In this document: positions 1 to 15,635 of the stretch, piece after piece
Layout: each line of letters begins with the position of its first letter
Numbering within the stretch: the first letter of the stretch is position 1
From: an uncultured delta proteobacterium
GTDB taxonomy: Bacteria; Desulfobacterota; WTBG01; CAIYCZ01; CAIRTM01
DNA length: 64,000 bases
Direction: 5' to 3'
NCBI GenBank assembly: GCA_963804955.1
Contig: CAWDSQ010000036.1
Coordinates: 1-64,000, forward strand
Position numbers and translations under genes: made by a program
The notes under the pieces: model-generated
Told to the model about the DNA's origin: nothing
The model's input: the letters and a program-made list of their open reading frames with translations, nothing else
The model's database searches: none

Positions 1-1461
1 TGCAGCAGGAGCGCTACCGTCTATGAGGTTTGAACCCTTTCCACCCATGATATGATATTTCTGTTTCGTCACAGAGGTAGTGGTGGTCGAAGTCGCCGGT
101 ACAGTGCTTGTCGTTGTTGACGAACTGGTCGATGTGGTTGCCGGTATGCTCGTTGTCGGCACTGTCGTCGTCGGCAGCGTACTGGTCGTTGATGTCGTTG
201 GTACCGTGGTTGCCGGCACTGTCGTCGTTGCAGCCGTGCTCGTTGTTGAGATGCTGTCGTACGGGGTAAACCTGATCCAGTCAATTTGATATATACATTC
301 AACGCCAGACGCAGGAGGGCCATTTATCCAGCTTGTTGCAGACCAGGCATTTAATTTCAATTGATATAATTTGTCTATGAATGGATATGGTGCTGCATAG
401 GTATAGGTTAACAGGTTTATGCCGTCAACAAACCAGCTTATGTGTGTTGGCGTTATATCAAAGCCCCAGACATGAAAATCATCGGACGGGTTAAAATTCA
501 AGGGTATGTCAGGATTGGTTTGAAAGCTCGATGCGCCGTTTGCATGCACAGCAAAGTGAACCTTTCCGGCAGAATCGGTAAACGTATAGGTCAGAAACTC
601 TATATCAATCTCCTGCTGGGTTTGGATTGCGCCCGCATCGGCGATCCAGTCAATTGTATAGAATGAGTTGAGAATGCCGGGGACAGAAGAAGGCTTTATG
701 CGTGCTTCCCATTTTCCATAGCCAAACTCCTGCCGGGTTTGAATCGCCGAACTGAGATAGGTTCCAGCATCGTTTATAAATACTAAATTTAAAAATCCGT
801 CCTGCGCATAACACCGTGCACGTCCTGTCTGCCCGCCATGCTCGACCCATGTGGCGATTTGCCATATCGTTTCATTTATAGAATTGAAGTTTTCTACAAA
901 TGACGGAGCACTGGTCGTTGTTGCCGGTATGGTGGTTATCGTGCTGGAGGTTGCCGGCAGCGAGCTTGTCGATGAGCTTGTCGGCACGGTGCTTGTGGTT
1001 GCAACGGAGGTGGACGGGGAGCTTGTCGTTGCCGGGATGCTGGTCGCGGTGCTGGAGGTGGCAGTGCCCGTGCTTGTTGTCGTCGTGCCTGCAGCAGGCA
1101 CCGTATAGGTTACCTCGTTGGAAAAGCCGCTCTGCCCGTAGGCATTGTATGCCTTCAGAGCAAAGTAATAGGTTGTGCCGGATGTGAGCGTTGCAAGTGT
1201 CGTTTGCAGAACATTGCCCGCATCAACTTCGGTCGAGGGATTTGTCAGAACGCTCTGCGTACCATAATATATTTTATAGCCGGTGACAGGATCAGGGCTT
1301 TGATCCCAGGCCAGGGTGACACTGGCAGCCTGGCTGTCGGCGGCGCAGAGCAGGGCGGCAACAAACAGCATGAAACCCAGGCACAGGGAGAAATACTCTT
1401 TTAAGAAAAATGATGTGCGCCGGTTTTCCATGAAAGCCTGCCGCTTCTTGAATTGTTGCAT
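1..1461 (-). CDS. Secreted Fn3 / Thr-rich linker / GH16 glycoside hydrolase / Thr-rich linker / FG-GAP-like protein (paralogue A; runs off the window edge, absent from ORF track)
   Basis: Manual translation from ATG 1461 is stop-free to base 1. It reads signal peptide, Fn3 (VTLAWDQSPDPVTGYKIYYG...YYFALKAYNAYGQSGFSNEV), then a GH16 domain at ~259-900 (YGKWEARIKP, EIDIEFL at 592-612, DDFHVWGFDITPTHISWFVDG, YQIDWIRFTP), then GGKGSNLIDGSAPAA, which opens the shared C-terminal domain. Confidence 0.9.
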   Translation of the reverse strand, partial: MQQFKKRQAFMENRRTSFFLKEYFSLCLGFMLFVAALLCAADSQAASVTLAWDQSPDPVTGYKIYYGTQSVLTNPSTEVDAGNVLQTTLATLTSGTTYYFALKAYNAYGQSGFSNEVTYTVPAAGTTTTSTGTATSSTATSIPATTSSPSTSVATTSTVPTSSSTSSLPATSSTITTIPATTTSAPSFVENFNSINETIWQIATWVEHGGQTGRARCYAQDGFLNLVFINDAGTYLSSAIQTRQEFGYGKWEARIKPSSVPGILNSFYTIDWIADAGAIQTQQEIDIEFLTYTFTDSAGKVHFAVHANGASSFQTNPDIPLNFNPSDDFHVWGFDITPTHISWFVDGINLLTYTYAAPYPFIDKLYQLKLNAWSATSWINGPPASGVECIYQIDWIRFTPYDSISTTSTAATTTVPATTVPTTSTTSTLPTTTVPTTSIPATTSTSSSTTTSTVPATSTTTTSVTKQKYHIMGGKGSNLIDGSAPAA

Positions 1462-1485
1462 GAACCTGATGATAGCGCATCTTTT

Positions 1486-2278
1486 TTAGGCTTTGATGCA
1501 TAGTGCTTTCGACAGCCTGAAGACATTGGGCACGGTTCCCAGGACCGGCAGGCGCAGAATGCGCGCTATTTGCCGCTCCGACTTGAAAGAGGTGTCCAGA
1601 AGCTCCAGAATGCCGATCCAGATAAGCACTGCGGCCAGCCCTGCCGCAAGAAGCAGCACGGTCACCGGCAGCCGTTCGTTCCTCCACAGCGCCTTTTGGC
1701 TCTCTACTGCCAGCCCGCCTTTCAGCTCACTATAGGGCGGCGATTTCGGGATGGCCGGCGCCCTGCCTTCCTGCTGCACCTGCCTGGCCAGCAGCATCTC
1801 CTGCCGCCGTACGCCGTCTTCGGCCTTTTTAACTATTTTTTTAGCATAAAAAGCAGCCAGAAATTCTACCCATCTCCTGATTGACGCCGCTGTAGCTGAT
1901 GCGCAGCGTGTTGTTGCCATAGGACAGAGACAGCGCGCTTTTGATGGCCTGCATCAATTGAGCCTCTGTCATGACGGCAGCGGGCTGTGCCGGCAGCTCC
2001 TTCTGCAGTTCGCGGCTGAGCGTCTGAAGGGTATAGCTGTCCAGAAACAGCTCATCCTGGTGCGCCACGAACCAGTCGATCGACGTGACATCGGAAGGGC
2101 TGTTTGACAGAGCCAGCGGTATATCCGGTGCGATTGTTATTGCCTGAGAAATTTTAAAACGGTCAATTTGCGCGGCTGCGGCGGCAAAATAGATGAATGC
2201 CGGGATCAGGGCAAGGATGAAAAGGCCCCGCTGCGCAGACATTTTATACACATAGCGTTTTATGAAGAAGCTGAACAT
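1486..2278 (-). CDS. Wzz/GumC-like polysaccharide co-polymerase membrane protein (frameshift near 1865-1900)
   Basis: Two ORF halves: an N-terminal TM helix, and a C-terminal TM helix followed by ELLDTSFKSERQIARILRLPVLGTVP, typical of Wzc/CpsC activator tails. Confidence 0.7.
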
Positions 2279-2304
2279 GGCTGTGCCCCCATCTCTAAAA
2301 GGTT

Positions 2305-2964
2305 TTACGACAGCGGATTCTGCCAGTCGTTTATGATGACGCCCAGAATATTGGCCCCTGCGGTTTCCAGGGCGAACTGCGCCTGCTTCACCACCTGGCG
2401 CGAGGTCTTGCCGGCGGCCACGACCAGCGCCACGCCGTCGGCTTTCTGGGCAATCACCAAAGGATCGATCATGCGGCGGTTGGTGGGGAAAATTTTCGAT
2501 GTGTCAATGAAGATGATATCATAGGCCGCCCGGGCCTTATCGAGAAGCTTTTCAGCCAGCTGCTGCTCATCGCCGTTGCGCTGCTCGCCCCAGGCCTGTT
2601 CATTGAGCGCAGGCAGAACGTCCATATGAGCCTCCGCTACATGGTGCACCATGTCTGTTATGGCCGCTCCGTTTTGAGCCCTGGCAGGGTCAAGAAGCTC
2701 TGCGCCGAAAAGCCTGTGCAGCGACGGTGCATGCCAGTTGAGGTCCATGGCAAGCACGCGCTTGCCGGTTTCTTTTGCGGCAAGAGCGGCAAGGCCTGCA
2801 AGCATGGTCGTCTTGCCCTCTCCGGGTTCGGCGCTGGTAACGGCAATGCAAATGTTGCGGCCGTTTTTGCCCCCGGGCATTGACGCTTCAAGAGCGCTAT
2901 AGAGCCGCTTCATTTCGGCGATTTCTGTCAGGACGGAACTGTTGATTGATGTCCCCTCGCTCAT
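2305..2964 (-). CDS. CpsD/CapB family BY-kinase-like P-loop ATPase
   Basis: Walker A TSAEPGEGKTT, A' VLAMDLN, B YDIIFIDT, plus ADGVALVV and ILGVIIN motifs. Confidence 0.85.
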   Translation of the reverse strand: MSEGTSINSSVLTEIAEMKRLYSALEASMPGGKNGRNICIAVTSAEPGEGKTTMLAGLAALAAKETGKRVLAMDLNWHAPSLHRLFGAELLDPARAQNGAAITDMVHHVAEAHMDVLPALNEQAWGEQRNGDEQQLAEKLLDKARAAYDIIFIDTSKIFPTNRRMIDPLVIAQKADGVALVVAAGKTSRQVVKQAQFALETAGANILGVIINDWQNPLS

Positions 2965-3221
2965 GACGGCGCCCCCTTTCTGGGTGTTTTGGTTGGTTAT
3001 GTCGACTGCATGTAAGATGCTATATATTGTTTATATAGAATATAACCTCAGCCGTTTCAATCCTGTAAAAAAGTAAAAAAACAGCGTTCTTGTCGATTCA
3101 GGACAAGCTCGACCGAAAAAAATGCCATAACCTTAATGGGGCTTGAAGAGTGATTTGTGAAAGGAATAGAAATTGATAGCTTATAGTAAAAGCTTGTATA
3201 AGTTTATCATCTTAGGTTCCT

Positions 3222-4876
3222 TTAAAATGTCTCAGGCCTTTTTTTCGAGAGTGACTTTAAGAATAAATCCATTAACCTTGGAAAATTATTTTTTACATCT
3301 TTTATTGCCGGATAGGTTTCGCCGTTGACAATGTTGTAGTCTGCATCAGGCATCTGCAGTCGGGAAATCACGCTGAAATCATGGAGCCCGTCATCACGCA
3401 GCTCCATCATGCCCTGCCCGCCCTGGCCGAAGCCGACGAGAACTTCATCAAGGCCATCACCGTCGATGTCGCCGCAGGAGAGCCTGGTCTCTCCATTCTC
3501 CGGTCTGTAATCAGCAGTTCCTGATTCAAGCCATCTTTTGAAAGTGACCGTGCCCGTACCCGGGCCGTACGAGTATACCGGGATTCTGCCTTCCGAGTTC
3601 GTTCCCAGGCCAAGCAGTATTTCCTCGCGCATCGTGCGATTGATGTCGCCGCATGCAGGGCGGGTTTCGCCGCTGAGGGCATTGTAATCGGGCCAGTCTA
3701 CAAAGCCCCAGGCAAGATGCCCGGCATTGCCCCCGAGCACCTGAAATTTTCCCTCCGGCAGAAAAAAATCATTGGCAGGATACAGGCCCAGAATGATTTC
3801 GTCTTTGCGGTCAAAATCTATGTTGCCGCAGGCCGGGCGAACTCCGCCTCCCGCTGATGCAGTAATCATCCCAGCCGACCTTTATCCATGAGGCATGTAC
3901 AGCTCTTCCGTTTGTGAATTTAAAGACCTCGACCCTGCCGTCGCCATCGACGCCCAGCCCGATGAGAATTTCATCCACGCCGTCGCCGTCGATATCGCCG
4001 CAGGCAGGCCAGGACTCGCCATTGATGCTGTTGTAGCTGCTCCAGTCTATCTGCCCCCAGCCCAGGCTGGTAAAGTCATCATCGAGAATTTGAAATTTTC
4101 CCCCGGGTATTGAGGGATTTCCCTCAACAGGGCCGAGGCCTATTATTATTTCCTCTTTTTTATCGCCGTCGATATCGCCGGTTGCGATGCGCGCCTCGCC
4201 GTTCAGGGCATTGTATTCGTCCCAGCCTACGGAAATTTGAAGGGGGGTGTCGGTAATGTCGAATATTGCAATTGCACCCTGATCGGTAAACACCTGGCCC
4301 GGTTCTGCTGCAGCGCTCTGTTCGCTTTTTGCAGCGGGAGCGCTACCGTCTATGAGGTTTGAACCTTTTCCTCCCAGGACGGTATAGTTCATCTGAATCA
4401 CCGAGGTTGTCGTGGCTGAGATCACCGGCGACGGTGCTTGTCGTTGCCGGGATACTGGTCGCGGTGCTGGAGGTGGCAGTGCCCGTGCTTGTTGTCGTCG
4501 TGCCTGCAGCAGGCACCGTATAGGTTACCTCGTTGGAAAAGCCGCTCTGCCCGTAGGCATTGTATGCCTTCAGAGCAAAGTAATAGGTTGTGCCGGATGT
4601 GAGCGTTGCAAGTGTCGTCTGCAGAACATTGCCCGCATCAACTTCGGTCGAGGGATTTGTCAGAACGCTCTGCGTACCATAATATATTTTATAGCCGGTG
4701 ACAGGATCAGGGCTTTGATCCCAGGCCAGGGTGACACTGGCAGCCTGGCTGTCGGCGGCGCAGAGCAGGGCGGCAACAAACAGCATGAAACCCAGGCACA
4801 GGGAGAAATACTCTTTTAAGAAAAATGATGTGCGCCGGTTTTCCATGAAAGCCTGCCGCTTCTTGAATTGTTGCAT
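3222..4876 (-). CDS. Secreted Fn3 / short Thr-rich / FG-GAP-like repeat protein (paralogue B; frameshifts near 4425 and 3858)
   Basis: ORFs 4343-4891, 3811-4425 and 3222-3869 join into signal peptide + Fn3 + short Thr linker + repeats of ACGDIDGDGxDEIxxGLG. Confidence 0.8.
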
Positions 4877-4887
4877 GAACCTGATGA

Positions 4888-5690
4888 TCACATGTTTTTT
4901 TTATGCTCTGAGCCAATGACTTTCGACAGCTTGAAGACATTGGGCACGGTTCCCAGGACCGGCAGGCGCAGAATGCGCGCTATTTGCCGCTCCGACTTGA
5001 AAGAGGTGTCCAGAAGCTCCAGAATGCCGATCCAGATAAGCACTGCGGCCAGCCCTGCCGCAAGAAGCAGCACGGTCACCGGCAGCCGCTCGTTCCTCCA
5101 CAGCGCCTTTTGGCTCTCTACTGCCAGCCCGCCTTTCAGCTCACTATAGGGCGGCGATTTCGGGATGGCCGGCGCCCTGCCTTCCTGCTGCACCTGCCTG
5201 GCCAGCAGCATCTCCTGCCGCCGTACGCCGTCTTCGGCCTTTTTAACTATTTTTTTAGCATAAAAAGCAGCCAGAAATGCTACCCATCTCCTGATTGTCG
5301 CCGCTGTAGCTGATGCGGAGCGGTCGTTTCCATAGGACATGGTCATTGCGCTTTTGATGGTCTGCAGCCATTGAGCATCCGTCATGACGGCAGCAGGCTG
5401 CGCCGCAGCTGCTTCTGCAGTTCGCGGCTGAGCGTCTGAAGGGTATAGCTGTCCAGAAACAGCTCATCCTGGTGCGCCACGAACCAGTCGATCGACGTGA
5501 CATCGGAAGGGCTGTTTGACAGAGCCAGCGGTATATCCGGTGCGATTGTTATTGCCTGAGAAATTTTAAAACGGTCAATTTGCGCGGCTGCGGCGGCAAA
5601 ATAGATGAATGCCGGGATCAGGGCAAGGATGAAAAGGCCCCGCTGCGCAGACATTTTATACACATAGCGTTTTATGAAGAAGCTGAACAT
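4888..5690 (-). CDS. Wzz/GumC-like membrane protein, copy 2 (frameshifted)
   Basis: ORFs 5382-5690 and 4888-5385 are paralogous to 1486-2278. Confidence 0.7.
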
Positions 5691-5716
5691 GGCTGTGCCC
5701 CCATCTCTAAAAGGTT

Positions 5717-6376
5717 TTACGACAGCGGATTCTGCCAGTCGTTTATGATGACGCCCAGAATATTGGCCCCTGCGGTTTCCAGGGCGAACTGCGCCTGCTT
5801 CACCACCTGGCGCGAGGTCTTGCCGGCGGCCACGACCAGCGCCACGCCGTCGGCTTTCTGGGCAATCACCAAAGGATCGATCATGCGGCGGTTGGTGGGG
5901 AAAATTTTCGATGTGTCAATGAAGATGATATCATATGCCGCCCGGGCCTTATCGAGAAGCTTTTCAGCCAGCTGCTGCTCATCGCCGTTGCGCTGCTCGC
6001 CCCAGGCCTGTTCATTGAGCGCAGGCAGAACGTCCATATGAGCCTCCGCTACATGGTGCACCATGTCTGTTATGGCCGCTCCGTTTTGAGCCCTGGCAGG
6101 GTCAAGAAGCTCTGCGCCGAAAAGCCTGTGCAGCGACGGTGCATGCCAGTTGAGGTCCATGGCAAGCACGCGCTTGCCGGTTTCTTTTGCGGCAAGAGCG
6201 GCAAGGCCTGCAAGCATGGTCGTCTTGCCCTCTCCGGGTTCGGCGCTGGTAACGGCAATGCAGATGTTGCGGCCGTTTTTGCCCCCGGGCATTGACGCTT
6301 CAAGAGCGCTATAGAGCCGCTTCATTTCGGCGATTTCTGTCAGGACGGAACTGTTGATTGATGTCCCCTCGCTCAT
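5717..6376 (-). CDS. CpsD/CapB family BY-kinase-like P-loop ATPase, copy 2
   Basis: Translation identical to 2305-2964. Confidence 0.85.
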   Translation of the reverse strand: MSEGTSINSSVLTEIAEMKRLYSALEASMPGGKNGRNICIAVTSAEPGEGKTTMLAGLAALAAKETGKRVLAMDLNWHAPSLHRLFGAELLDPARAQNGAAITDMVHHVAEAHMDVLPALNEQAWGEQRNGDEQQLAEKLLDKARAAYDIIFIDTSKIFPTNRRMIDPLVIAQKADGVALVVAAGKTSRQVVKQAQFALETAGANILGVIINDWQNPLS

Positions 6377-6756
6377 GAGACTCCCCCGTTTGCATGATCC
6401 GGCTTGTTGTATCGTATAGTATATTCTAGCGCAATCAATGCTCTGGACACAAGATAAGAATTGCTCGTTTTTTTAATGGGCTTCCATCTCTTGACCTGTG
6501 AGGCCTTCCGAAGCCTGCGCGCCTTGATCCCCCGGAACCCGGTTGTAGATGAGCTGTTCTTTAAGAGTCCGATCGAAGCGCAGCAGCGCCTTTATGGCTT
6601 TGTGTTCCTGAAGATGGCTCACCCCGGCCTGAACACTTGATTTGGTTATTGCATTTTGCCATGATATTTTTTAAATCCGGCCGCAGCCGAACTCTGTAGC
6701 CGGTTAATTCTTAAAATAAGCCCATTATTTTTTTTCAAAATACGGCAAAATTTTTT

Positions 6757-6807
6757 TTGCAATTATTTTTTTATATGCTATATACCTAAATAGACGTTTG
6801 TTATACT
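6757..6807 (+). promoter_or_regulatory. Candidate sigma70 promoter(s) for the riboswitch leader
   Basis: TTGCAA (6757) and TGcTATATA; also an extended -10 TGtTATACT (6799-6807) in an AT-rich tract just upstream of aptamer 1. Confidence 0.4.
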
Positions 6808-6834
6808 GTTAAAGCAAAATTGAAAAAGCAGTAC

Positions 6835-6916
6835 AAACCGAAAAAGGCAATCTATTCCGCAAGGGTAGTGCGCAAAGTAACCGGTCCTTACAGGTAAGGA
6901 CAGCGGGACTGCCGGG
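6835..6916 (+). ncRNA. c-di-GMP-I (GEMM-I) riboswitch aptamer 1
   Basis: CCG-AAAAA-GGCAATC-TATTCC-GCAA-GGGTAG-TGCGCAAAG-TAACCGGTCCTTAC..GTAAGGACAGCGGGACTGCCG. It has the GNRA loop, the CGCAAAG junction, the P3 hairpin, and G20/A47/C92 equivalents of Vc2. Confidence 0.9.
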
Positions 6917-6936
6917 AACAATAGGGTGTTTCACGG

Positions 6937-6977
6937 CAGGCCTCTTCTTACCAGTAAGAAGAGGCCTGTTTTATTTT
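6937..6977 (+). terminator. Intrinsic terminator of riboswitch 1
   Basis: 14-bp stem CAGGCCTCTTCTTA/TAAGAAGAGGCCTG followed by TTTTATTTT. Confidence 0.9.
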
Positions 6978-7145
6978 ATACCCGAAGGCAGGGTAATTGC
7001 AGGGACTGCAGCCTCGGTTGAAAATAAATTGTCTCTGCTGAATTTTTGGAGATACAGCCGATTATTTTTTAAGAAGCCTTACAGGCAGTTCAGGGAATCG
7101 ATATTCTTTTTGCAGTTGTGCAGCAAAAAGAGACGCAGCATCGAG

Positions 7146-7226
7146 AACCGAAAAAGGCGAGCTATACCGCAAGGGTAGTGCGCAAAGTTACCGGTCCTTA
7201 CAGATAAGGACAGAGGAACTGCCGGG
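7146..7226 (+). ncRNA. c-di-GMP-I riboswitch aptamer 2
   Basis: Same consensus as aptamer 1, 310 nt downstream. Confidence 0.88.
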
Positions 7227-7248
7227 GTCAAATAGAGTTTTTCACCGG

Positions 7249-7291
7249 CAGGCCTCTTCTTATCACAGTAAGAAGAGGCCTGTTTTGTTTT
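7249..7291 (+). terminator. Intrinsic terminator of riboswitch 2
   Basis: Same 14-bp stem followed by TTTTGTTTT. Confidence 0.9.
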
Positions 7292-7460
7292 ATAGCCGAA
7301 GGCAGAGTGCGTGCAGAGACTTGCAGCCTCGGTTGAAATAAATAAAATCCGCTTAACTTTTTGGAGATACAGCGATTATTTTTTAAAGAAGCCTTACAGG
7401 CAGTTCAGGGAATCGATATTCTTTTTGACAGTTGTGAAGCAAAAAGAGAAGAAGCATCGA

Positions 7461-7541
7461 AACCGAAAAAGGCGAGCTATTCCGCAAGGGTAGTGCGCAA
7501 AGTTACCGGTCCTTACAGATAAGGACAGAGGAACTGCCGGG
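7461..7541 (+). ncRNA. c-di-GMP-I riboswitch aptamer 3
   Basis: Same consensus, 315 nt after aptamer 2. Confidence 0.88.
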
Positions 7542-7562
7542 GTCAAATATAGTTTTCACCGG

Positions 7563-7606
7563 CAGGCCTCTACTTATCTAACCATAAGAAGAGGCCTGTT
7601 TTGTTT
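7563..7606 (+). terminator. Intrinsic terminator of riboswitch 3
   Basis: Stem CAGGCCTCTACTTAT/ATAAGAAGAGGCCTG (one mismatch) followed by TTTTGTTT. Confidence 0.88.
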
Positions 7607-7680
7607 ATAGCCGCAGGAAAGGTTTTCAGGCTTATCAGTGCTAAGGTGAAAAAAGATGCGTGATTATCAAGTGCAGATGT

Positions 7681-10600
7681 ATGAAGAGATACAAGCAGTA
7701 CGGAGTTTTTCAGAAAACCTGCGTGCGTCATTTTTCTCAAAAGCAGTATTTCCCCCTGTGCCTGGGTTTCCTGCTTTTTGTGGCCGCCCTTTTCTGCGCT
7801 GCCGAAAGTCAGGCTGCCACTGTCACCCTGACCTGGGATCAAAGCCCTGATCCTGTCACCGGCTATAGACTATTTTACGGCGAGCAGAGCGTTCTGACAA
7901 ATCCCTCAACTGAAATCGATGCGGGCAATGTTCTGCAGACGACACTTACAACGCTGACATCCGGCACAACCTATTACTTTGCTTTCAAGGCATACAATGC
8001 CTACGGGCAGAGCGGCTTTTCCAACGAGGTAACCTATACGGTGCCTGCCTGCCGGCACAACGACAACAATGCCGAACCGGTTTCAACGACTTCGGCTGCG
8101 GCAAGCACCGTGCCGGCAACAACGAGCACGATTGCAACGACGACAGTGCGCAACGACCACGGCGCCAACGACCAGCGACCGCACTGACAACGATCATGCG
8201 ACCAGTATCACCACCAACAACGAGTTCTACTCCGCCTGCAGGAACCACAAGCGTTTCTGTCAGACCACAACAACAGGGGTTGGTAACGAGCGCCATCTGG
8301 TTCGGGGCAGAGGTTATGCGGTTCAACGCCGCATCGCTTGGCCGCATCGCTTGCGCTGTAAAACAGCCTGCTTGCCGCAGGCATCACCGAGTCGAAAACT
8401 CGACGGATGCCGTGATGGCGGTGGGCAGCCGGGCATCATGGGGCGATATCGATCCTGCGAAAACTGTGGCGCTACAGCATGGCGACGAGATTTCTCGACA
8501 GGGGCCAATGCAATAGACGCGCAGCCGATGTCACCGATGCCAATGCGGACGCCATAGCGGCTGAATCACAGGCTGGACAACCGTAAGTTGCGAATCTGGT
8601 CTGCAAAAGCGGATGCGGCTCTTTCCGCGGGCAGCACAGCGGCGATCACGTTAGAGCTTTATGACGGCGACAATGCCTCACGGGCAATACGCAAATTGGA
8701 TGATTATCGGGCCGCGGTTGAGGCTTATAGGAGTCACTGTCGAAGCTCGGCGGTATCTGACAAAGGTCAGTTCGCCCGGGCCGATTGACGGGTATACTGG
8801 GAGAGAGCACGGTATCAGCGGTATTTGAAGCATGAGGACTAGGCGGTATGTCGTGCCGATGGAACCCGTATACTGTTTGCAATCGAGCATATACTCTGTA
8901 CAGCAACGGGGGCGGGCTCTACCTGAGCTGCGCTGGACAGACGTCCGGTGGGCGGTGTACGCAGGTTACCGGCTATTCATACACGTACAATATGCTGTAC
9001 TCCAATCGCAGCTAAATGGAGGACGCACATCGGCCACGGTGGGCACGGTGACGGCTGGCAAAGGCCTCTTCAGACTGGTGCGGGGTATGGGCTGCATATA
9101 AAGCGACCTGCAACGCCGACGACATCGGTTACGACAACGAGCGTGCCGACAACGACGACCACGGTTGCAACGACGACAGTGCCGAAAACCACCACCGTAC
9201 CGACAACCTCAACGACCAGTACGCTGCCGACGACATCGGTTACGACAACGAGCATGCCGACAACGACGACCACGATAGCCACGACAACGAGCGTACCGAC
9301 AACAACGACCACGGTTGCAACGACGACAGTGCCGAAAACCACCACCATACCGACGACATCAACGACCAGTACGCTGCCGACGACATCGGTCACGACAACG
9401 AGCGTGCCGACAACAACGACCACGATTGCCACGACCACAGTGCCGACAACCACCACGGTACCGACGACCTCAACGACAGTACGCTGCCGACGACCTCGGT
9501 CACGACAACGAGCATGCCGACAACAACGACCACGATTGCCACGACGACAGTGCCGACAACCACCACGTACCGACGACCTCAACGACCAGTACGCTGCCGA
9601 CGACCTCGGTCACGACAACGAGCATGCCGACAACAACGACCACGGTCGCCACGACCACAGTGCCGACAACCTCAACGACCAGCACGCTGCCGACGACCTC
9701 GGTCACGACAACGAGCATGCCGACAACGACGACCACGGTTGCAACGACGACAGTGCCGACAACCACCACCGTACCGACAACCTCATCGACCAGTACGCTG
9801 CCGACGACATCGGTTACGACAACGAGCATACCGACAACGACGACCACGATTGCCACGACGACAGTGCCGACAACCACCACCGTACCGACGACCTCAACGA
9901 CCAGTACGCTGCCGACGACCTCGGTTACGACAACGAGCATACCGACAACGACGACCACGATTGCCACGACGACAGTGCCGACAACCACCACGGTTCCAAC
10001 GACATCAACGACCAGCACGCTGCCGACGACATCGGTTACGACAACGAGCATGCCGACAACGACGACTACGATAGCCACGACGACAGTGCCGACAACCACC
10101 ACGGTACCGACGACCTCAACGACGAGTACGCTGCCGACGACATCGGTTACGACAACGAGCGTGCCGACAACGACGACCTCAGTAAAGATCAGGAAATATA
10201 AAATTATCGGTGGAAAAGGTTCAAATCTCATAGACGGTAGCGCTCCCGCTGCAAAAAGCGAACAGAGCGCTGAAGCAGAGCCGGACCGGATTTTTACAGA
10301 GCAGGGTGCAATTGCGGTTTTCGACGAGACTGATGCCCCCCTTCAAATTTCCGTGGGCTGGGACGAATATAATGCCCTGAACGGCGAGGCGCGTATCGCA
10401 ACCGGCGATATCGACGGCGACGGAGAAGAGGAAATTATCATAGGCCTGGGCCCCGTTGAAGGGAATTCGGCAATACCCGGAGGAAAATTTCAAATTCTTG
10501 ATGATGACTTCACCAGCCTGGGCTGGGGCCAGATAGACTGGAGCGAGTACAACAGCATAAATGGCGAGTCGTGGCCCGCCTGCGGCGATATCGACGGCGA

Positions 10601-11327
10601 CGGCGTGGATGAAATTCTCATCGGCCTCGGGATCGGCGGCAATGGCAGGGTCGAGGTTTTTAAATTTAAAAACGGGGAAGCCGTGCATGCACAATGGATA
10701 AAGGTCGGCTGGGAAGAGTACTGCACAGCGGGAGGCGGTGTTCGCCCGGCCTGCGGCAATATCGATTTTGACCGCAAAGAGGAGATCATTCTGGGGCTGT
10801 ATCCTGTCAATGATTTTATGCCCGAGGGAAAATTTGAGGTGCTCGACGGCAATGCGAAGCATCTTGCCTGGGGTGTTGTCGACTGGCCCGATTATAATGC
10901 CATCAACGGCGAAACCCGTCCCGTCTGCGGTGATATTAATCGAACGGGGCGTGACGAAATACTGATGGGGCTGGGAAGGGGCTCAGGAGGCAGAATACCG
11001 GTATACTCGTACGGCCTGGGCAAAGTCAGCTTGAAAAGATGGCTTGAAGCAGGCCCCGCTGATTACCGTGCTGAAAATGGCGAGACCAGGCTCTCCTGCG
11101 GCGATACGGACGGTGACGGCCTTGATGAAATTCTTGTCGGCTTCGGCCAGGGCGGGCAGGGCATGATGGAACTGCATGATGACGGGCTCCATGATTTCAG
11201 CATGCTTTCCAACCTGCAGATGCCGGATGAGCACTACAATGCTGCAATCGGCGAAACCTATCCGGCAATCAAAGGCATAAAAAGCAAGTTTCCGAGGATC
11301 ATGGATTTTTTATTGAAGTTGTTCTGA
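7681..11327 (+). CDS. Large secreted Fn3 / Thr-rich / unknown domain / long Thr-rich array / FG-GAP-like protein (paralogue C; several frameshifts)
   Basis: Signal peptide + Fn3 in ORF 7660-8187, an error-rich middle, then the Thr array and FG-GAP-like repeats in ORF 9315-11327. Both ends are homologous to paralogues A and B. Confidence 0.75.
9115..10182 (+). repeat. Coding tandem repeat, ~111-nt (37-aa) Thr-rich unit
   Basis: Unit TTSVTTTS(M/I/V)PTTTTT(I/V)ATTTVPTTTTVPTTSTTSTLP, about 9-10 copies, some partial. Confidence 0.9.
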
Positions 11328-11437
11328 AAAGAAAGCACGAAACAGCCATAAAAAAACGAAGTATATTTTTTTCGTGCTATACTAAAATAATATACTGAGC
11401 TAATGCACTATTTAAAATTTATAAAGGAGAAAAACTC

Positions 11438-12643
11438 ATGAAAAAGCAAGTTTTTAAGAAATTATTTCTCATGGCGCTCGTGGGGACCTGTTTGCTGGTT
11501 TTCCATTCAAGCGCCCAGGCTAAATTTTTTGCAGCCGGATGTTTTACCGGAGTGTTTTACAGTGACAACGTAACACTGCTGGCAGATGGCTCTATAGTCC
11601 AGTGCCTGTATGCAGGGCCTGACGGCAGGATTGACCCGCCCAGGGCGGATGGTACGGCCGGGGGTGATGATGTGCTGCTGAAAGCGGCGTTTCAGCCGCC
11701 ACAATATTACACCACCATAGGAACCTCTTTTCCCTCTGATCCTGATGAAGGGAAATTTTTTGATGTTTTCAAAAATAAACTTAAAAAAGACGCCATTGTT
11801 TACTGCCGGGCATGGGATAATGCAACCTTTGAAACAGCCGTCTGCTATGGCGATTCAGCGCCCTATGCACTGCAATACAGCCGGGTTGATTTTAATATTT
11901 TTGAGTCCTGGAACACCAACCGATGCTCGTGCTTTATATCACTCGAACCCGCCACCAGGGCAGTCAGCCCGGGCGAGAGCATACAGTTTGAGGTTCTGCC
12001 GGGCCCCGCTTGTGGAGCAACAACCTGCTATGCCTGGTCAGTGAGCGGCACAAGCGGTGCAACCATTACTCCGGAAGGCTTCTATACCGCCGGGGGCATA
12101 GTGGGAAAGGATAACGTAACCGTTGTGGACCCCTGCAATGACAATGTCACAGCTTCTGCTGAAATAATCGTTCAATTGAACGATAGAGACGGGGACGGTA
12201 TTCTTGATGCAGAAGATAATTGCCCGACCATCCCGAATCCGGATCAAACAGATAACGATAGTGACGGAGTCGGTGATGCCTGTGACAGCTGCCCGGACTC
12301 AATACGTACACAAACTGTAATCGTAGACAGTTGCGATAGCGGGGTTCTCAATATGGTTTTTGAAGATGGCTGCACAATGAGCGACCTCATAGCACAGTGC
12401 TCTGCCGGAAAAAAGAATCACGGAGGTTTTGTCAGCTGTGTCTCCCATCTCACCAATGAGTGGAAAAGCGCCGGGTATATCAGTGGATCGGAAAAAGGTG
12501 CGATTCAGAGCTGTGCGGCAAAATCCGATAAAGGTAAGGGAGAAGGAGAGGCGGTAAGGGAGGCAAAGGTAAAAAATAACGAGCACTACAAAAGCGATAC
12601 TGCAGCCCATTTAAGGCTTGCCGGTATACCTGCAGGAGATTGA
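11438..12643 (+). CDS. Secreted protein with Ig-like domain and thrombospondin type 3 Ca-binding repeats
   Basis: Signal peptide; [36 protein letters not shown]-terminal [10 protein letters not shown] helical module. Confidence 0.75.
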
Positions 12644-12690
12644 AAAAAACAGGCCGGATCCTTTTCTTCAGGACTGGCCTGTTTTTTATT
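12643..12690. terminator. Bidirectional intrinsic terminator
   Basis: AAAAAAACAGGCCGG...CTGGCCTGTTTTTT between convergent genes. Confidence 0.7.
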
Positions 12691-12873
12691 GCTGCCATAA
12701 AAAGCCTCCGGGCATGCGGTGACTTTTTTGGTTTTTTAGTTGTCCACAGTAGGAACCGTAAGGTAAAATTCTGGGCGGGCAAGGGCGGGCACAAGATAGT
12801 GAGGCTGCAGGATCAGGCGCAGCTATTTGTCATCGCCTGCATCCGCCTTGTTGGTCTGGACATTGTTGACTGG

Positions 12874-13251
12874 TTAGTCTTCCTCTGAAAGAAGCCATCG
12901 CATGGCGCTTTCATAGTCCGTGTAGGCATTAATTGAAAAACCCTTGTTGTGAGAGCATGTCTCAAAGAAGCTGGCGAGATTAAAGTTGACCCCCGGAAGA
13001 ACAAGAAGGGCAACTTTCCTGCGAAAGGTATCACCATGATGGTACAGCTCCGCTGCAAGTTGATATACATCGGTTATCGACAAATCTGACTTTGTGTTAC
13101 GGAAATCAACGAGCAACTCGTAGTCTGCCGGGGGTTTACCGGACTTTGCTATATCTACGAGAAGTTGCTTGCTTGTGGCGATGTTTATAAGGCCACTAGG
13201 GGTTACCTCCATAAAATCGCTTGCGGTGATGATCTTGATGTTTGTTGCCAT
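12874..13251 (-). CDS. STAS/SEC14 (SpoIIAA-like) domain protein
   Basis: Motifs LLVDFR, RKVALLV, FFETCSHNKG and YESAMRWL. Confidence 0.6.
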   Translation of the reverse strand: MATNIKIITASDFMEVTPSGLINIATSKQLLVDIAKSGKPPADYELLVDFRNTKSDLSITDVYQLAAELYHHGDTFRRKVALLVLPGVNFNLASFFETCSHNKGFSINAYTDYESAMRWLLSEED

Positions 13252-14084
13252 TTAATGCCTTCCACCTGTGATGCGCACCTTGCTCAACATACTTTCAATA
13301 TAGAACACCATGCTTTTTTTTACTATCTAAATGCTCAACTTGACTGACTTAATGGCGCGTATGATCAGTGGCACGCCGCTTGCGTCGGGCAACGTGCTCA
13401 TAAAACCAGTTTTTTGTGCGATGCGACACATTCATTCGCACAGCCCTTGCGACGCTTTATGCCGCTGAACAGGCTGGCTGGGGCACTAATAATACAAGGA
13501 TTTCTATACGTTTCTGTTAAAAGCCAGTCAAGTGAGAATGGTATGCGCAATCCGTATATCATGACCTTTTGGGCAAGATGGTGGAAACCGGTAACTGCCA
13601 CCATGCGCCTTATCCATACAGACTGGGATACTTTATATGCTGCACTATCTGCTATAAAATATATTTAAATACCGTTTGCTAAAAAATGAACGGGGCGCGA
13701 ACGTCTGCAGCTTCAAGTTTATATTCAGGGGCTTTCCACAGGGGGTACGACTGATTATACCGGTTATTATGTGCTTGATACGGCAACAGGAAAAATGATT
13801 GATAAATCTACCGAGGTGCATAAGCAGGGTGAATTTGACACAACCCCCAAAAACGAGCCACAGAAAAGCTGGTGATTTCGGTTTGCACCCTTTTACAAAA
13901 TCGGGCTCTGGCCTATAACCCGTGTCGTCTTTGGGATACAAGCGGCCGCCGCACAAGACGCTAAAGCGGTATGCGTACAGGAATCAAGCATGCCCATCAT
14001 TCTTTGCCCGCCCCCACCGTCTTTGTCGGCGGGGGCGGAAGGAAGCTTTGCACTTCGAGCCCTTGTCTTTCCCTTTCAGGGGAG

Positions 14085-15635
14085 TTATATGCACCCAGCC
14101 TCATGTTTTGACATCTCCATCAGCCGTTCTCGGCGATAGGCCGGCTGTTCGCGAACGGCAACCACTGCATAGGAGGCTTCCACCTTGCCTGCCGAGACGA
14201 ACGGAATAAACGTGAATCCTTTTGAAGCATCGATAAATCCGCCGAGCCGTTTATTTGACTCCGTGATGGCGCTTGTCATCCGGACTTCCGGATGCCGGGC
14301 TATTGGCTATGGCATTTTGTACCAGGGCGCTGTTGATGGACGCGAATATCTCGGTAACGCAGTTGCGTCTGCAAAGGCTGTACGAGTAGAGCCGATTCAG
14401 GGCGGCATCATAATGTGCGGCGGCAATCTGCGCTGACGCCAGTTCCCGCTCGCACAGCGGCTTCGCTCATATCGGGAAGCGGCAGATCGAAGCGCCGGCC
14501 CTCGCGAGACGGAAATGACGTTTCAGGGATTTTCCTCGGCAGCGTGCCTGCCGCAACAGCCTGCTCAATGTCAAGCAGCAGATTGCCGGCCCGTTCCAGG
14601 GCGGCATAATCCGCTTCACGAAAAGAGCTGCTTTTGAAAAACTCCATGCGCCAGTGATGAAAGACCTTTTGCCGATCGTTATTCATGGCGGTAATATAGC
14701 TGTCCGGGGCATCCCCCGGATTTTTTCGTTCATTGCCAATACGTGATTCCTGCCCCTTAGCTGTATGCGGAAATATGTTCAGGAAAACGAGTTGCCCGGC
14801 TTGCAGGGAGGCTTTGATGGCAGCGAGGCGGGCCATACCGGCCATGAACGGAACCCCCCAGTCAGGGCGCGAAGAATTGGCCAGCCTGATCAGACGCTCC
14901 TCCTGCTGTTCGGTAAAGCTCTTCAGAGCAAGCGTTTCCTGTGGTGCGAGTTTGAATGCGGCATTGCCCGATGACCAGAATGTTCCATGCCGGAGAGGCG
15001 GTGCAGCTTGCAATTGCTCCAGAGCTGACAGCGCTGACAGCGCATCGTAGAACCGGGTAGAAGGGCCGGGTTGATGTCCGGGATAGGCATCCCGTGATAT
15101 GCCCGCCACCGGCGGTTCCACCGCCCGTAAGGACAATGTCCTGATGCGTGCCCTGGTTTGGGCAATCCGCTCTTCAATGAATCGCTCACCGTACGTGGCC
15201 AGTATTCTGTCACGCAGTAAAACCAGTGCCGGTGGAGCGGCGGCACTGCCGCTGCGGTGCTGCTTATCCCGGCTGTTTCGGTTCGCGCTCTGCTCCGGGC
15301 CGTCAGGTGACAAAATATCCAAGTCCCTTGATGGGCAATGAGACTTCGGCTGTTCTGCGATCCACAGCCTGATGCCGCTGAAGCACTAGCTCAAAGAGCG
15401 CTATATCCCGGCGCAGTTCATCACGCAGCGCCAACTGTGCATCCTGAATCAGGCACAGCCGGGTCAGAGCGTCAAGCAGGAGCGTGTAGGTTTCACCGGT
15501 TACAGCGATCAGGCTTTCACGGAGAGTCCGATTGCCGAGCTTGGTATATATATGATCGAATGCAGCGGAGTCGAGACGATGTGATTCTGATTATGCCGGA
15601 GTTTTCGTGCTGGAAGTGAAATGTCTGATCACTAA
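14085..15635 (-). pseudogene. Fragmented, truncated large hypothetical gene (possibly DUF4105/Lnb-like)
   Basis: Pieces FQHENSGIIRI...LGNRTLRE, ORF 14408-15322, YSLCRRNCVTEIF and RLGGFID..FIPFVS lie in different frames. No recognisable N- or C-terminus. Confidence 0.45.

Follow-up and report, generated by a model that had tools for sequence, protein, structure and literature searches.

A triple tandem c-di-GMP-I riboswitch array of predicted OFF polarity ahead of a putative surface-protein gene in an uncultured deltaproteobacterium

The window described here is a stretch of 64,000 nucleotides (nt), positions 1 to 64,000 of the forward strand of contig CAWDSQ010000036.1 (assembly GCA_963804955.1), from an uncultured delta proteobacterium of the GTDB lineage Bacteria; Desulfobacterota; WTBG01; CAIYCZ01; CAIRTM01. 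The host genome assembly consists of 4.26 Mb in 36 contigs and is 87% complete. The window contains three consecutive aptamers of the c-di-GMP-I (GEMM-I) riboswitch class, which is named for cyclic di-GMP (c-di-GMP); each is followed by an intrinsic terminator, and all three precede a long gene with FN3 and FG-GAP domains, here called gene C. The features of the locus are as follows.

6757..6784, + strand: predicted sigma-70 promoter of the leader (TTGCAA, 16-nt spacer, TG-extended TATATA)
6836..6916, + strand: c-di-GMP-I aptamer of unit 1 (RF01051, 53.9 bits, full model)
6891..6952, + strand: predicted antiterminator 1 (approximately 6891-6915 pairs with 6931-6952; duplex −24.6 kcal/mol, z −2.2)
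6935..6980, + strand: intrinsic terminator 1 (stem 6935-6970, 16 pairs, 7 of them GC; T tract 6971-6980)
6981..7145, + strand: spacer 1 (includes the block 7077-7103)
7146..7226, + strand: c-di-GMP-I aptamer of unit 2 (RF01051, 48.7 bits, full model)
7203..7264, + strand: predicted antiterminator 2 (7203-7225 pairs with 7245-7264; hairpin −28.1 kcal/mol, duplex z −5.3)
7247..7294, + strand: intrinsic terminator 2 (stem 7247-7284, 17 pairs, 7 of them GC, −27.5 kcal/mol; T tract 7285-7294)
7295..7460, + strand: spacer 2 (87% identical to spacer 1)
7461..7541, + strand: c-di-GMP-I aptamer of unit 3 (RF01051, 49.6 bits, full model)
7518..7578, + strand: predicted antiterminator 3 (7518-7540 pairs with 7559-7578; duplex z −5.0)
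7561..7609, + strand: intrinsic terminator 3 (stem 7561-7600 with one mismatch, −22.8 kcal/mol; T tract 7601-7609)
7660..11327, + strand: gene C, the putatively regulated gene (hydrophobic N-terminus, FN3 (Pfam fn3, 2.1e-09), Thr/Pro-rich repeats, FG-GAP (FG-GAP_3, 2.1e-12))
11438..12643, + strand: next gene, possibly co-transcribed (hydrophobic N-terminus, thrombospondin type 3 repeat)

When both strands of the full window were scanned with Rfam at the gathering thresholds (35 bits for RF01051), exactly three matches were returned, all of them to RF01051, on the + strand and covering model positions 1-87; a permissive scan of 6700-7700 (E up to 1) found no fourth or degenerate aptamer. The aptamers follow one another at 310 and 315 nt. 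Of 81 positions, 80 agree between aptamers 2 and 3 and 74-75 between aptamer 1 and either of them, while spacers 1 and 2 are 87.0% identical (147 of 169 aligned columns) and repeats 1 and 2 are 88.1% identical. The spacers being homologous, whole units have been duplicated. Terminators 1 and 2 were recognized by a consensus scanner as GC-rich hairpins with T tails; terminator 3, which has an internal mismatch and a larger loop, was missed by the scanner and recovered by folding as a stem directly before TTGTTTATA. A sequence-only reading of this DNA had proposed three GEMM-I aptamers at these same spacings, each with its own terminator, and homologous spacers indicating whole-unit duplication, and all of these proposals are borne out. 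By the criterion of at least two complete aptamer-plus-terminator units on one strand of one intergenic leader, the locus is a tandem array. That the triple is a mis-assembled single copy was considered and rejected, because the units differ at many positions and an orthologous triple is present in the genome of a congener (G003); the triple c-di-GMP-I array is almost certainly real.

For comparison, 13 units were assembled from the window (three), G003 (six) and the related genomes G004 (two) and G001 (two), all of them close kin. Across this set aptamer helices 1-4 are paired in 92-100% of cases, and six aptamer pairs have changed on both sides. The P1a tetraloop of the window units is GCAA, and the CUAA and AuG receptor columns of the model are gaps in all three; a subtype with a GYRA loop and no 11-nt receptor was described along with the class. 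The base of P2 is perfectly paired in unit 1 but contains a G-A mismatch in units 2 and 3.

In every unit, a linker of 18-20 nt lies between the aptamer and the terminator, which have no nucleotides in common. CCGGCAG together with the terminator 5′ strand can pair with the aptamer 3′ half, which comprises the P2 loop, the P2 3′ strand and CUGCCGG; the 3′ strand of the terminator resembles the 3′ half of the aptamer because both complement the terminator 5′ strand. The complementary runs include GAUAAGG/UCUUAUC and AGAGG/CCUCU. Stepwise folding of the growing transcript gave this antiterminator as the minimum free energy (MFE) structure at 3′ ends 7256-7277 in unit 2 and 7570-7594 in unit 3; past such ends, the terminator is the MFE structure in each unit. 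When transcripts were cut in the middle of the terminator loop, the antiterminator was the MFE structure in five of eight cases (units 2 and 3 and three of five relatives), the others being unit 1, one relative, and another relative that had been mis-cut. Over the 13 units, the aptamer-plus-terminator model is paired in 93.1% of 537 cells (34-52% in slid controls) and 11 of its 42 pairs change on both sides, a count reached by none of 500 shuffles. The antiterminator model is paired in 89.4% of 236 cells (36-62% in slid controls), and its pair between the P2 loop and the edge of the terminator loop is G-C in six units and A-U in five. Scoring was possible for 40 of the 42 units in a wider set drawn from public contigs; the antiterminator duplex had z below −2 relative to shuffled terminator strands in 22 of these, and at least eight antiterminator pairs were present in the truncated MFE structure of 23. 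A single structure incompatible with the terminator was found, and it disrupts P1 and P2 of the aptamer as well; therefore, ligand binding should free the terminator strand, and it is likely, as far as folding models can tell, that c-di-GMP binding leads to termination (OFF polarity).

As for the ligand, the three units agree in carrying G at model position 11, A as the first base after the P1a GC pair, and an invariant CUGCCGG. The distance from the position-11 G to the A is 28 nt with one inserted base, compared to 27 in the Rfam consensus. The presumed equivalence of position 11 to G20 of the Vc2 riboswitch is cross-checked by the 27-nt spacing of G20 to A47 and by the A-to-G difference in the consensus of RF03167 (the GGC variant), which differs from RF01051 at exactly the column equivalent to A47 (CGCGAAG versus CGCAAAG). 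According to PMC6140456 and PMC5888326, one guanine of c-di-GMP is recognized in Vc2 by G20 and the other pairs with C92, whereas relatives that sense cyclic GMP-AMP (cGAMP) have A in place of G20; in one of these, Gs1761, the A is A14 and the other contacts are A41 and C75, so that the spacing of A14 to A41 parallels that of G20 to A47. An A20G substitution is described as making a Geobacter cGAMP switch selective for c-di-GMP (PMC6456294). None of the three window units has the A of the cGAMP type (GEMM-Ib), and none belongs to RF03167 by its 59-bit cut-off and its G at the A47 equivalent: unit 1 scores 48.8 bits and its variant-defining base is A. Because the G, A and C contact bases are present and the G of the GGC variant is absent, the predicted ligand of all three units is c-di-GMP. 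The host genome has 17 GGDEF domain matches and four EAL domain matches, three of the latter over cut-off.

The predicted promoter scores eight of 12 hexamer matches and was missed by the consensus scanner, and it belongs to a block, TTG(C/T)AATT(A/T)TTTTTT.ATATGCTA, that precedes the first unit in four of four related loci (the window, L012, L013 and L014), occurs once in the 4.26-Mb genome, and is absent from the spacers. From this promoter, whose −10 element ends at 6784, to the start of gene C at 7660 (GTG) or 7681 (ATG), the leader would be approximately 870-890 nt long, in agreement with an earlier estimate of about 850 nt. Each spacer contains a 27-nt block, CCTTACAGGCAGTTCAGGGAATCGATA, at 7077-7103 and 7392-7418, which is invariant in all six spacers of three arrays in two species, whereas mean column identity elsewhere in the spacer is 77-94%; its first eight letters are those of the aptamer P2 5′ strand and loop. 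A conserved RNA fold of the spacer is not supported by RNAalifold on seven spacers (−15.1 kcal/mol with a positive, penalizing covariation term). Two origins of the spacer were considered and rejected: as a degenerate aptamer, its local alignment score was reached by 243 of 500 shuffles and the permissive Rfam scan was empty there; as a decayed promoter region, it has the MAFFT-aligned run ATTATTTTTT, but its best local alignment lies elsewhere and was equalled by 16 of 500 shuffles. Upstream of the aptamers, the homology apparent in the alignments between first and internal units covers only the 35 nt or so next to the aptamer 5′ end. A stretch capable of forming a hairpin, CCGAAGGC...GCCTCGG, directly follows terminators 1 and 2 (6983-7020 and 7297-7335) and is kept in six of seven spacers of relatives; the indication of a structure there is weak.

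The proposed mechanism is that a single leader transcribed from the promoter at 6757-6784 would carry three riboswitches in series, each with an aptamer, an antiterminator (formed by the aptamer 3′ half with CCGGCAG and the terminator 5′ strand) and an intrinsic terminator. In the absence of ligand, the antiterminator would form once the terminator 5′ strand emerges, and the polymerase would read through; with c-di-GMP bound, the aptamer would keep its own 3′ half, the terminator would form, and the transcript would end at approximately 6975, 7290 or 7605. Binding at any single unit would end the transcript, making the array an OR gate for shut-off, and the FN3/FG-GAP gene, perhaps along with the next gene, would be expressed only at low c-di-GMP. 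Compared to one unit, three would repress more deeply and begin to do so at a lower ligand level. We infer ligand binding, OFF polarity, the single transcript and the physiological logic of the array from sequence, and the full explanation, one leader with three OFF units in series, is on balance probable. In a simple equilibrium model of three OFF units acting independently, the single-unit read-through values multiply; the half-maximal inhibitory concentration is 0.26-0.34 of the single-unit value, the fold-range is cubed (for example, from 5-fold to 125-fold), and the effective Hill coefficient is 1.17-1.26. A modelled ON triple is equally steep, and its half-maximal effective concentration is 3.85 times higher. 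The sequence-only reading had expected tandem units to multiply termination and to sharpen the dose response: multiplication and the cubed range hold in the model, but the sharpening is only small. In such a model the main effects of independent units in series are on depth and threshold, and sharpening is modest.

Several observations weigh against this explanation. The antiterminator of unit 1, the weakest unit, is the MFE structure only at 3′ ends 6957-6961, or 5 nt of elongation. Covariation in the antiterminator is thin among units so closely related (2 of 19 pairs change on both sides, which 55 of 500 shuffles equal), and 18 of the 40 units of the wider set are not below z −2, partly through mis-located terminators. 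The ViennaRNA energies take in neither co-transcriptional kinetics nor tertiary contacts nor ligand. The full-length MFE structure contains the terminator even without a ligand term; therefore, the switch must be kinetic, acting co-transcriptionally. Adhesin-like proteins are usually induced by c-di-GMP, which makes shut-off at high c-di-GMP unexpected. This expectation and the terminator as thermodynamic default would both suit an array of the opposite polarity, in which the ligand blocks termination and all three units must be bound (an AND gate). Precedent points the same way: the sole triple c-di-GMP-I array characterized in print, Bc3-5 of Bacillus thuringiensis CT-43, located in the 5′ untranslated region of cspABCDE, is ON as described in PMC4759541, and Geobacter riboswitches of the cGAMP-sensing GEMM-I type, the best studied among deltaproteobacterial relatives, are described as activating genes (PMC6456294). 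The terminators of Bc3-5 use nucleotides of the aptamers, so that the ligand prevents termination, and Bc4 is likewise presented as an ON design by direct competition (PMC4759541). The latter design is inapplicable to the window array because its aptamers and terminators share no nucleotides; in this the array differs from the Bc3-5 example, not from the general class. With no aptamer nucleotide in the terminator stems, with P1 and P2 wrecked in the only structure that excludes the terminator, and with CCGGCAG freed, when the aptamer holds CUGCCGG, to extend the terminator stem by up to five pairs (two of them G-U), the ligand should favour termination, and an ON array is unlikely. The single transcript, for its part, faces the alternative that the spacers hold weak promoters of their own, in which case there would be three start points, a transcript would meet one, two or all three switches depending on where it began, and simple multiplication over the units would not hold; OFF polarity is compatible with such an arrangement. 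A sigma-70-like match (CTTACA, 18 nt, TATTCT; four plus four of 12) does lie at the equivalent place in both spacers (7078-7107 and 7393-7422), within the most conserved block, the one invariant across six of six spacers, and the more distant G004 spacer appears from the alignment to keep TTG..., 17 nt, TAT..T at the corresponding site. However, the match has a poor −35 element and no TG extension, scores of eight in 12 are common by chance and several others are found in the same spacers, the strong motif of the first unit occurs once in the genome and not in the spacers, and the scanner gave no promoter-like site in 6300-7800. For promoters inside each spacer, which the sequence-only reading had said would make the units independent and refute its account, no strong match was found in either spacer, the best being these weak ones. 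Initiation within the spacers is accordingly considered fairly unlikely, and the spacers probably lack functional promoters, judging by motif content.

Two further alternatives concern what the array senses and whether it is still in use. The notion that the aptamers respond to another dinucleotide, such as 3′3′-cGAMP or the unknown ligand of the GGC variant, draws on the A at the G20 equivalent in six of the eight single GEMM-I elements of the same genome, so that a cGAMP-type branch is probably present, and on the permissive scan, in which unit 1 is also listed under RF03167, with a better E-value (48.8 bits, compared to 53.9 for RF01051). It is very unlikely, given that G occupies the G20 position in all three units and is described in Vc2 as disfavouring cGAMP (KD 10 µM, as opposed to picomolar for c-di-GMP; PMC6140456), and that the RF03167 score is below cut-off with A at the name-giving position. 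As to use, gene C is read in at least four frames from 7660 to 11327 in this assembly, a further point against regulation of an intact gene, and the part that forms one long frame in the G003 ortholog (296 codons to the end of that locus) is split in the window; the array might therefore be a relic before a pseudogene, with its riboswitches no longer under selection here. On the other hand, the three aptamers are above cut-off and the three terminators and antiterminators are intact. Because frame breaks are frequent in the assembly and fall at different points in two near-identical copies of a chain-length-determinant-like gene, two GGDEF matches are split as well, and the G003 ortholog is also frame-broken, indel errors are probably likelier than a pseudogene, and the relic explanation is quite unlikely. 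Approximately 1 kb of gene C consists of near-perfect Thr/Pro-rich repeats, and the G003 and G004 contigs with its orthologs (L013 and L014) both end inside the gene, which is evidently hard to assemble. The product of gene C looks secreted and surface-located by virtue of its FN3 domain, Thr-rich linker and FG-GAP repeats, in keeping with the large surface protein that had been predicted. Between 11327 and 11438, a scan of 11200-14500 found no terminator-like site, and gene C may be co-transcribed with the gene at 11438..12643.

The distribution of such arrays was surveyed in 41 genomes (the host and 40 relatives), tandems being judged by inspection of match coordinates. At least one GEMM-I match was found in 33 of the 41, but close tandems only in the genus of the window. 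The host genome has 11 matches, 10 of them over cut-off, and the window array is its only tandem. G003 has two triples, on contigs C47 (spacings 305 and 315 nt) and C4 (311 and 310 nt), and G004 has one doublet (308 nt). The C47 triple is orthologous to the window array, with the same start of a tyrosine-autokinase-like gene upstream, the same promoter, and an FN3 gene downstream, the ortholog of gene C (L013), with 80% identity over the first 90 amino acids. The C4 triple (L012 8915-9617, minus strand) has the same promoter block and only units of the internal type, 94-98% identical, and it is followed not by an FN3 gene but by a gene for a 268-amino-acid BspA-type leucine-rich repeat (LRR) protein (LRR_5, 3.3e-33). 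Unit 1 of the window is nearest to unit 1 of its ortholog (90%), and all internal units, whether from the window or from G003, group in a single clade (support 93/99); therefore, an array of at least two units predates the split of the two species, and the third unit reflects either a later duplication or homogenization between repeats.

An exact 18-nt motif retrieved 33 stretches from a public genome collection and 63 from a public metagenome collection, scans that may leave out the window's own genome, and all 96 loci were then searched with nhmmer. Triples were found only in L027/L042 (one contig) and L045, and doublets in L030, L050 (cut by the contig end) and L098; L047 has a pair 764 nt apart, and no array of more than three units was found among the 96 loci. 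The L098 doublet (1100-1554, minus strand, on a metagenome contig) has a period of 299 nt, and CCGCCGG replaces CUGCCGG in both of its units. In a 497-nt contig of X1, 44 letters of other sequence separate the unit-1 region from the unit-3 region; this contig represents either a relative with two units or a collapsed assembly. Contig pieces from four DNA runs come from relatives, and none of them spans the stretch of the array.

Single OFF riboswitches of the c-di-GMP-I class with terminators include Cd1 of the Clostridioides difficile flagellar operon and Bc1 of the Bacillus cereus group (for Bc1, PMC11218506); the window array is like them in that the ligand-bound aptamer is predicted to favour an intrinsic terminator, but has three units in series where Cd1 and Bc1 have one. 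Triple c-di-GMP-I arrays as a kind are already known, and current understanding is not overturned. According to PMC9481103, c-di-GMP-I is the commonest class of tandem riboswitch, with 347 doublets and 12 triplets, so that triples, which had been called rare, are rare but catalogued; the class as described there shares with the window array the arrangement of same-class riboswitches each with its own expression platform ('pseudo-cooperative'). According to a 2025 survey, COG1305 genes in Bacillota can have c-di-GMP-I triples ahead of them (PMC12452182). Like Bc3-5 as described in PMC4759541, the window array has three complete and similar c-di-GMP-I aptamers with their own terminators in one leader, and the units are thought to be independent in both; tighter, more digital control than with one or two units was shown for Bc3-5. 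Unlike Bc3-5, the window array keeps aptamer and terminator separate, linked by a predicted antiterminator from which OFF polarity is predicted, and it is found in a deltaproteobacterial lineage rather than in Bacillota, before a different gene, with a period of about 310 nt and 165-nt spacers. In Geobacter sulfurreducens, GEMM-Ib doublets are described, for example upstream of omcAHG (PMC6456294); these also combine tandem aptamers of the GEMM-I fold with terminators before genes for extracellular proteins in a deltaproteobacterium, but they have A20, sense cGAMP, come as doublets and are ON, whereas the window units have G and are predicted to be OFF.

The present locus would contribute a predicted OFF design, conservation at the level of the genus as doublets and triples, and a cassette that recurs before a second gene. 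It provides a well-anchored c-di-GMP-I triple from outside Bacillota, shared between species of an uncultured genus of deltaproteobacteria, with a predicted polarity opposite to that of the only characterized triple, Bc3-5. If OFF polarity is correct, an ON triple (an AND gate, with a raised threshold) could be compared directly to an OFF triple (an OR gate, which lowers the threshold and cubes the dynamic range), and the arrays of two and three units that occur naturally at two genes would be material for learning how copy number sets a threshold. The cassette is found in the genus before an FN3/FG-GAP gene (window and G003) and a BspA-type LRR gene (G003), in two or three units, and it is tentatively suggested, as a rather doubtful possibility, that promoter and riboswitches together form a portable, copy-number-variable threshold setter before unrelated surface-protein genes. 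In that event each extra OFF unit would lower the c-di-GMP level that silences the gene, the reverse of the AND gate in Bc3-5; shut-off would be tuned gene by gene through unequal recombination between the 310-nt repeats; and the invariant 27-nt block would be functional, as a pause site, an insulator or a weak promoter, rather than filler.

The six single GEMM-I elements of the host genome (G000) with A at the G20 equivalent are C24:2163, C26:19084, C6:38384, C36:67951, C10:70603 and C25:40787 (contig and position). All six are followed by terminators, and those on C26, C6 and C10 lie upstream of BspA-type LRR genes on the same strand. The organism may operate c-di-GMP and cGAMP riboswitch regulons in parallel.

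Transcribed divergently from the array are genes similar to those for a polysaccharide chain-length determinant and a tyrosine autokinase, in both cases with scores below the NCBIfam cut-offs. They belong to a block of about 3.4 kb that is present twice in tandem in positions 1-6400 of the window, on the minus strand. The tyrosine-autokinase-like protein of 219 amino acids is identical in both blocks (2305-2964 and 5717-6376), and the chain-length-determinant-like gene is broken differently in each (145 plus 144 amino acids in one, 102 plus 165 in the other). A paralog of the gene C FN3 N-terminus closes each block, one at 1-1461 with a beta-glucanase-like domain and the other at 3222-4891 with FG-GAP repeats in three overlapping frames. 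Either a recent duplication or a fault of the assembly would account for the doubling, and the fact that the frames break at different points suggests indel errors.

On the minus strand of L012, 4702-4760 is a sub-threshold SECIS_3 match (47.2 bits, cut-off 63) that starts just past the stop codon of a frame (4755-5633) with molybdopterin-oxidoreductase and Fe4S4 domains; the stop looks like a selenocysteine codon in a formate-dehydrogenase-like gene.

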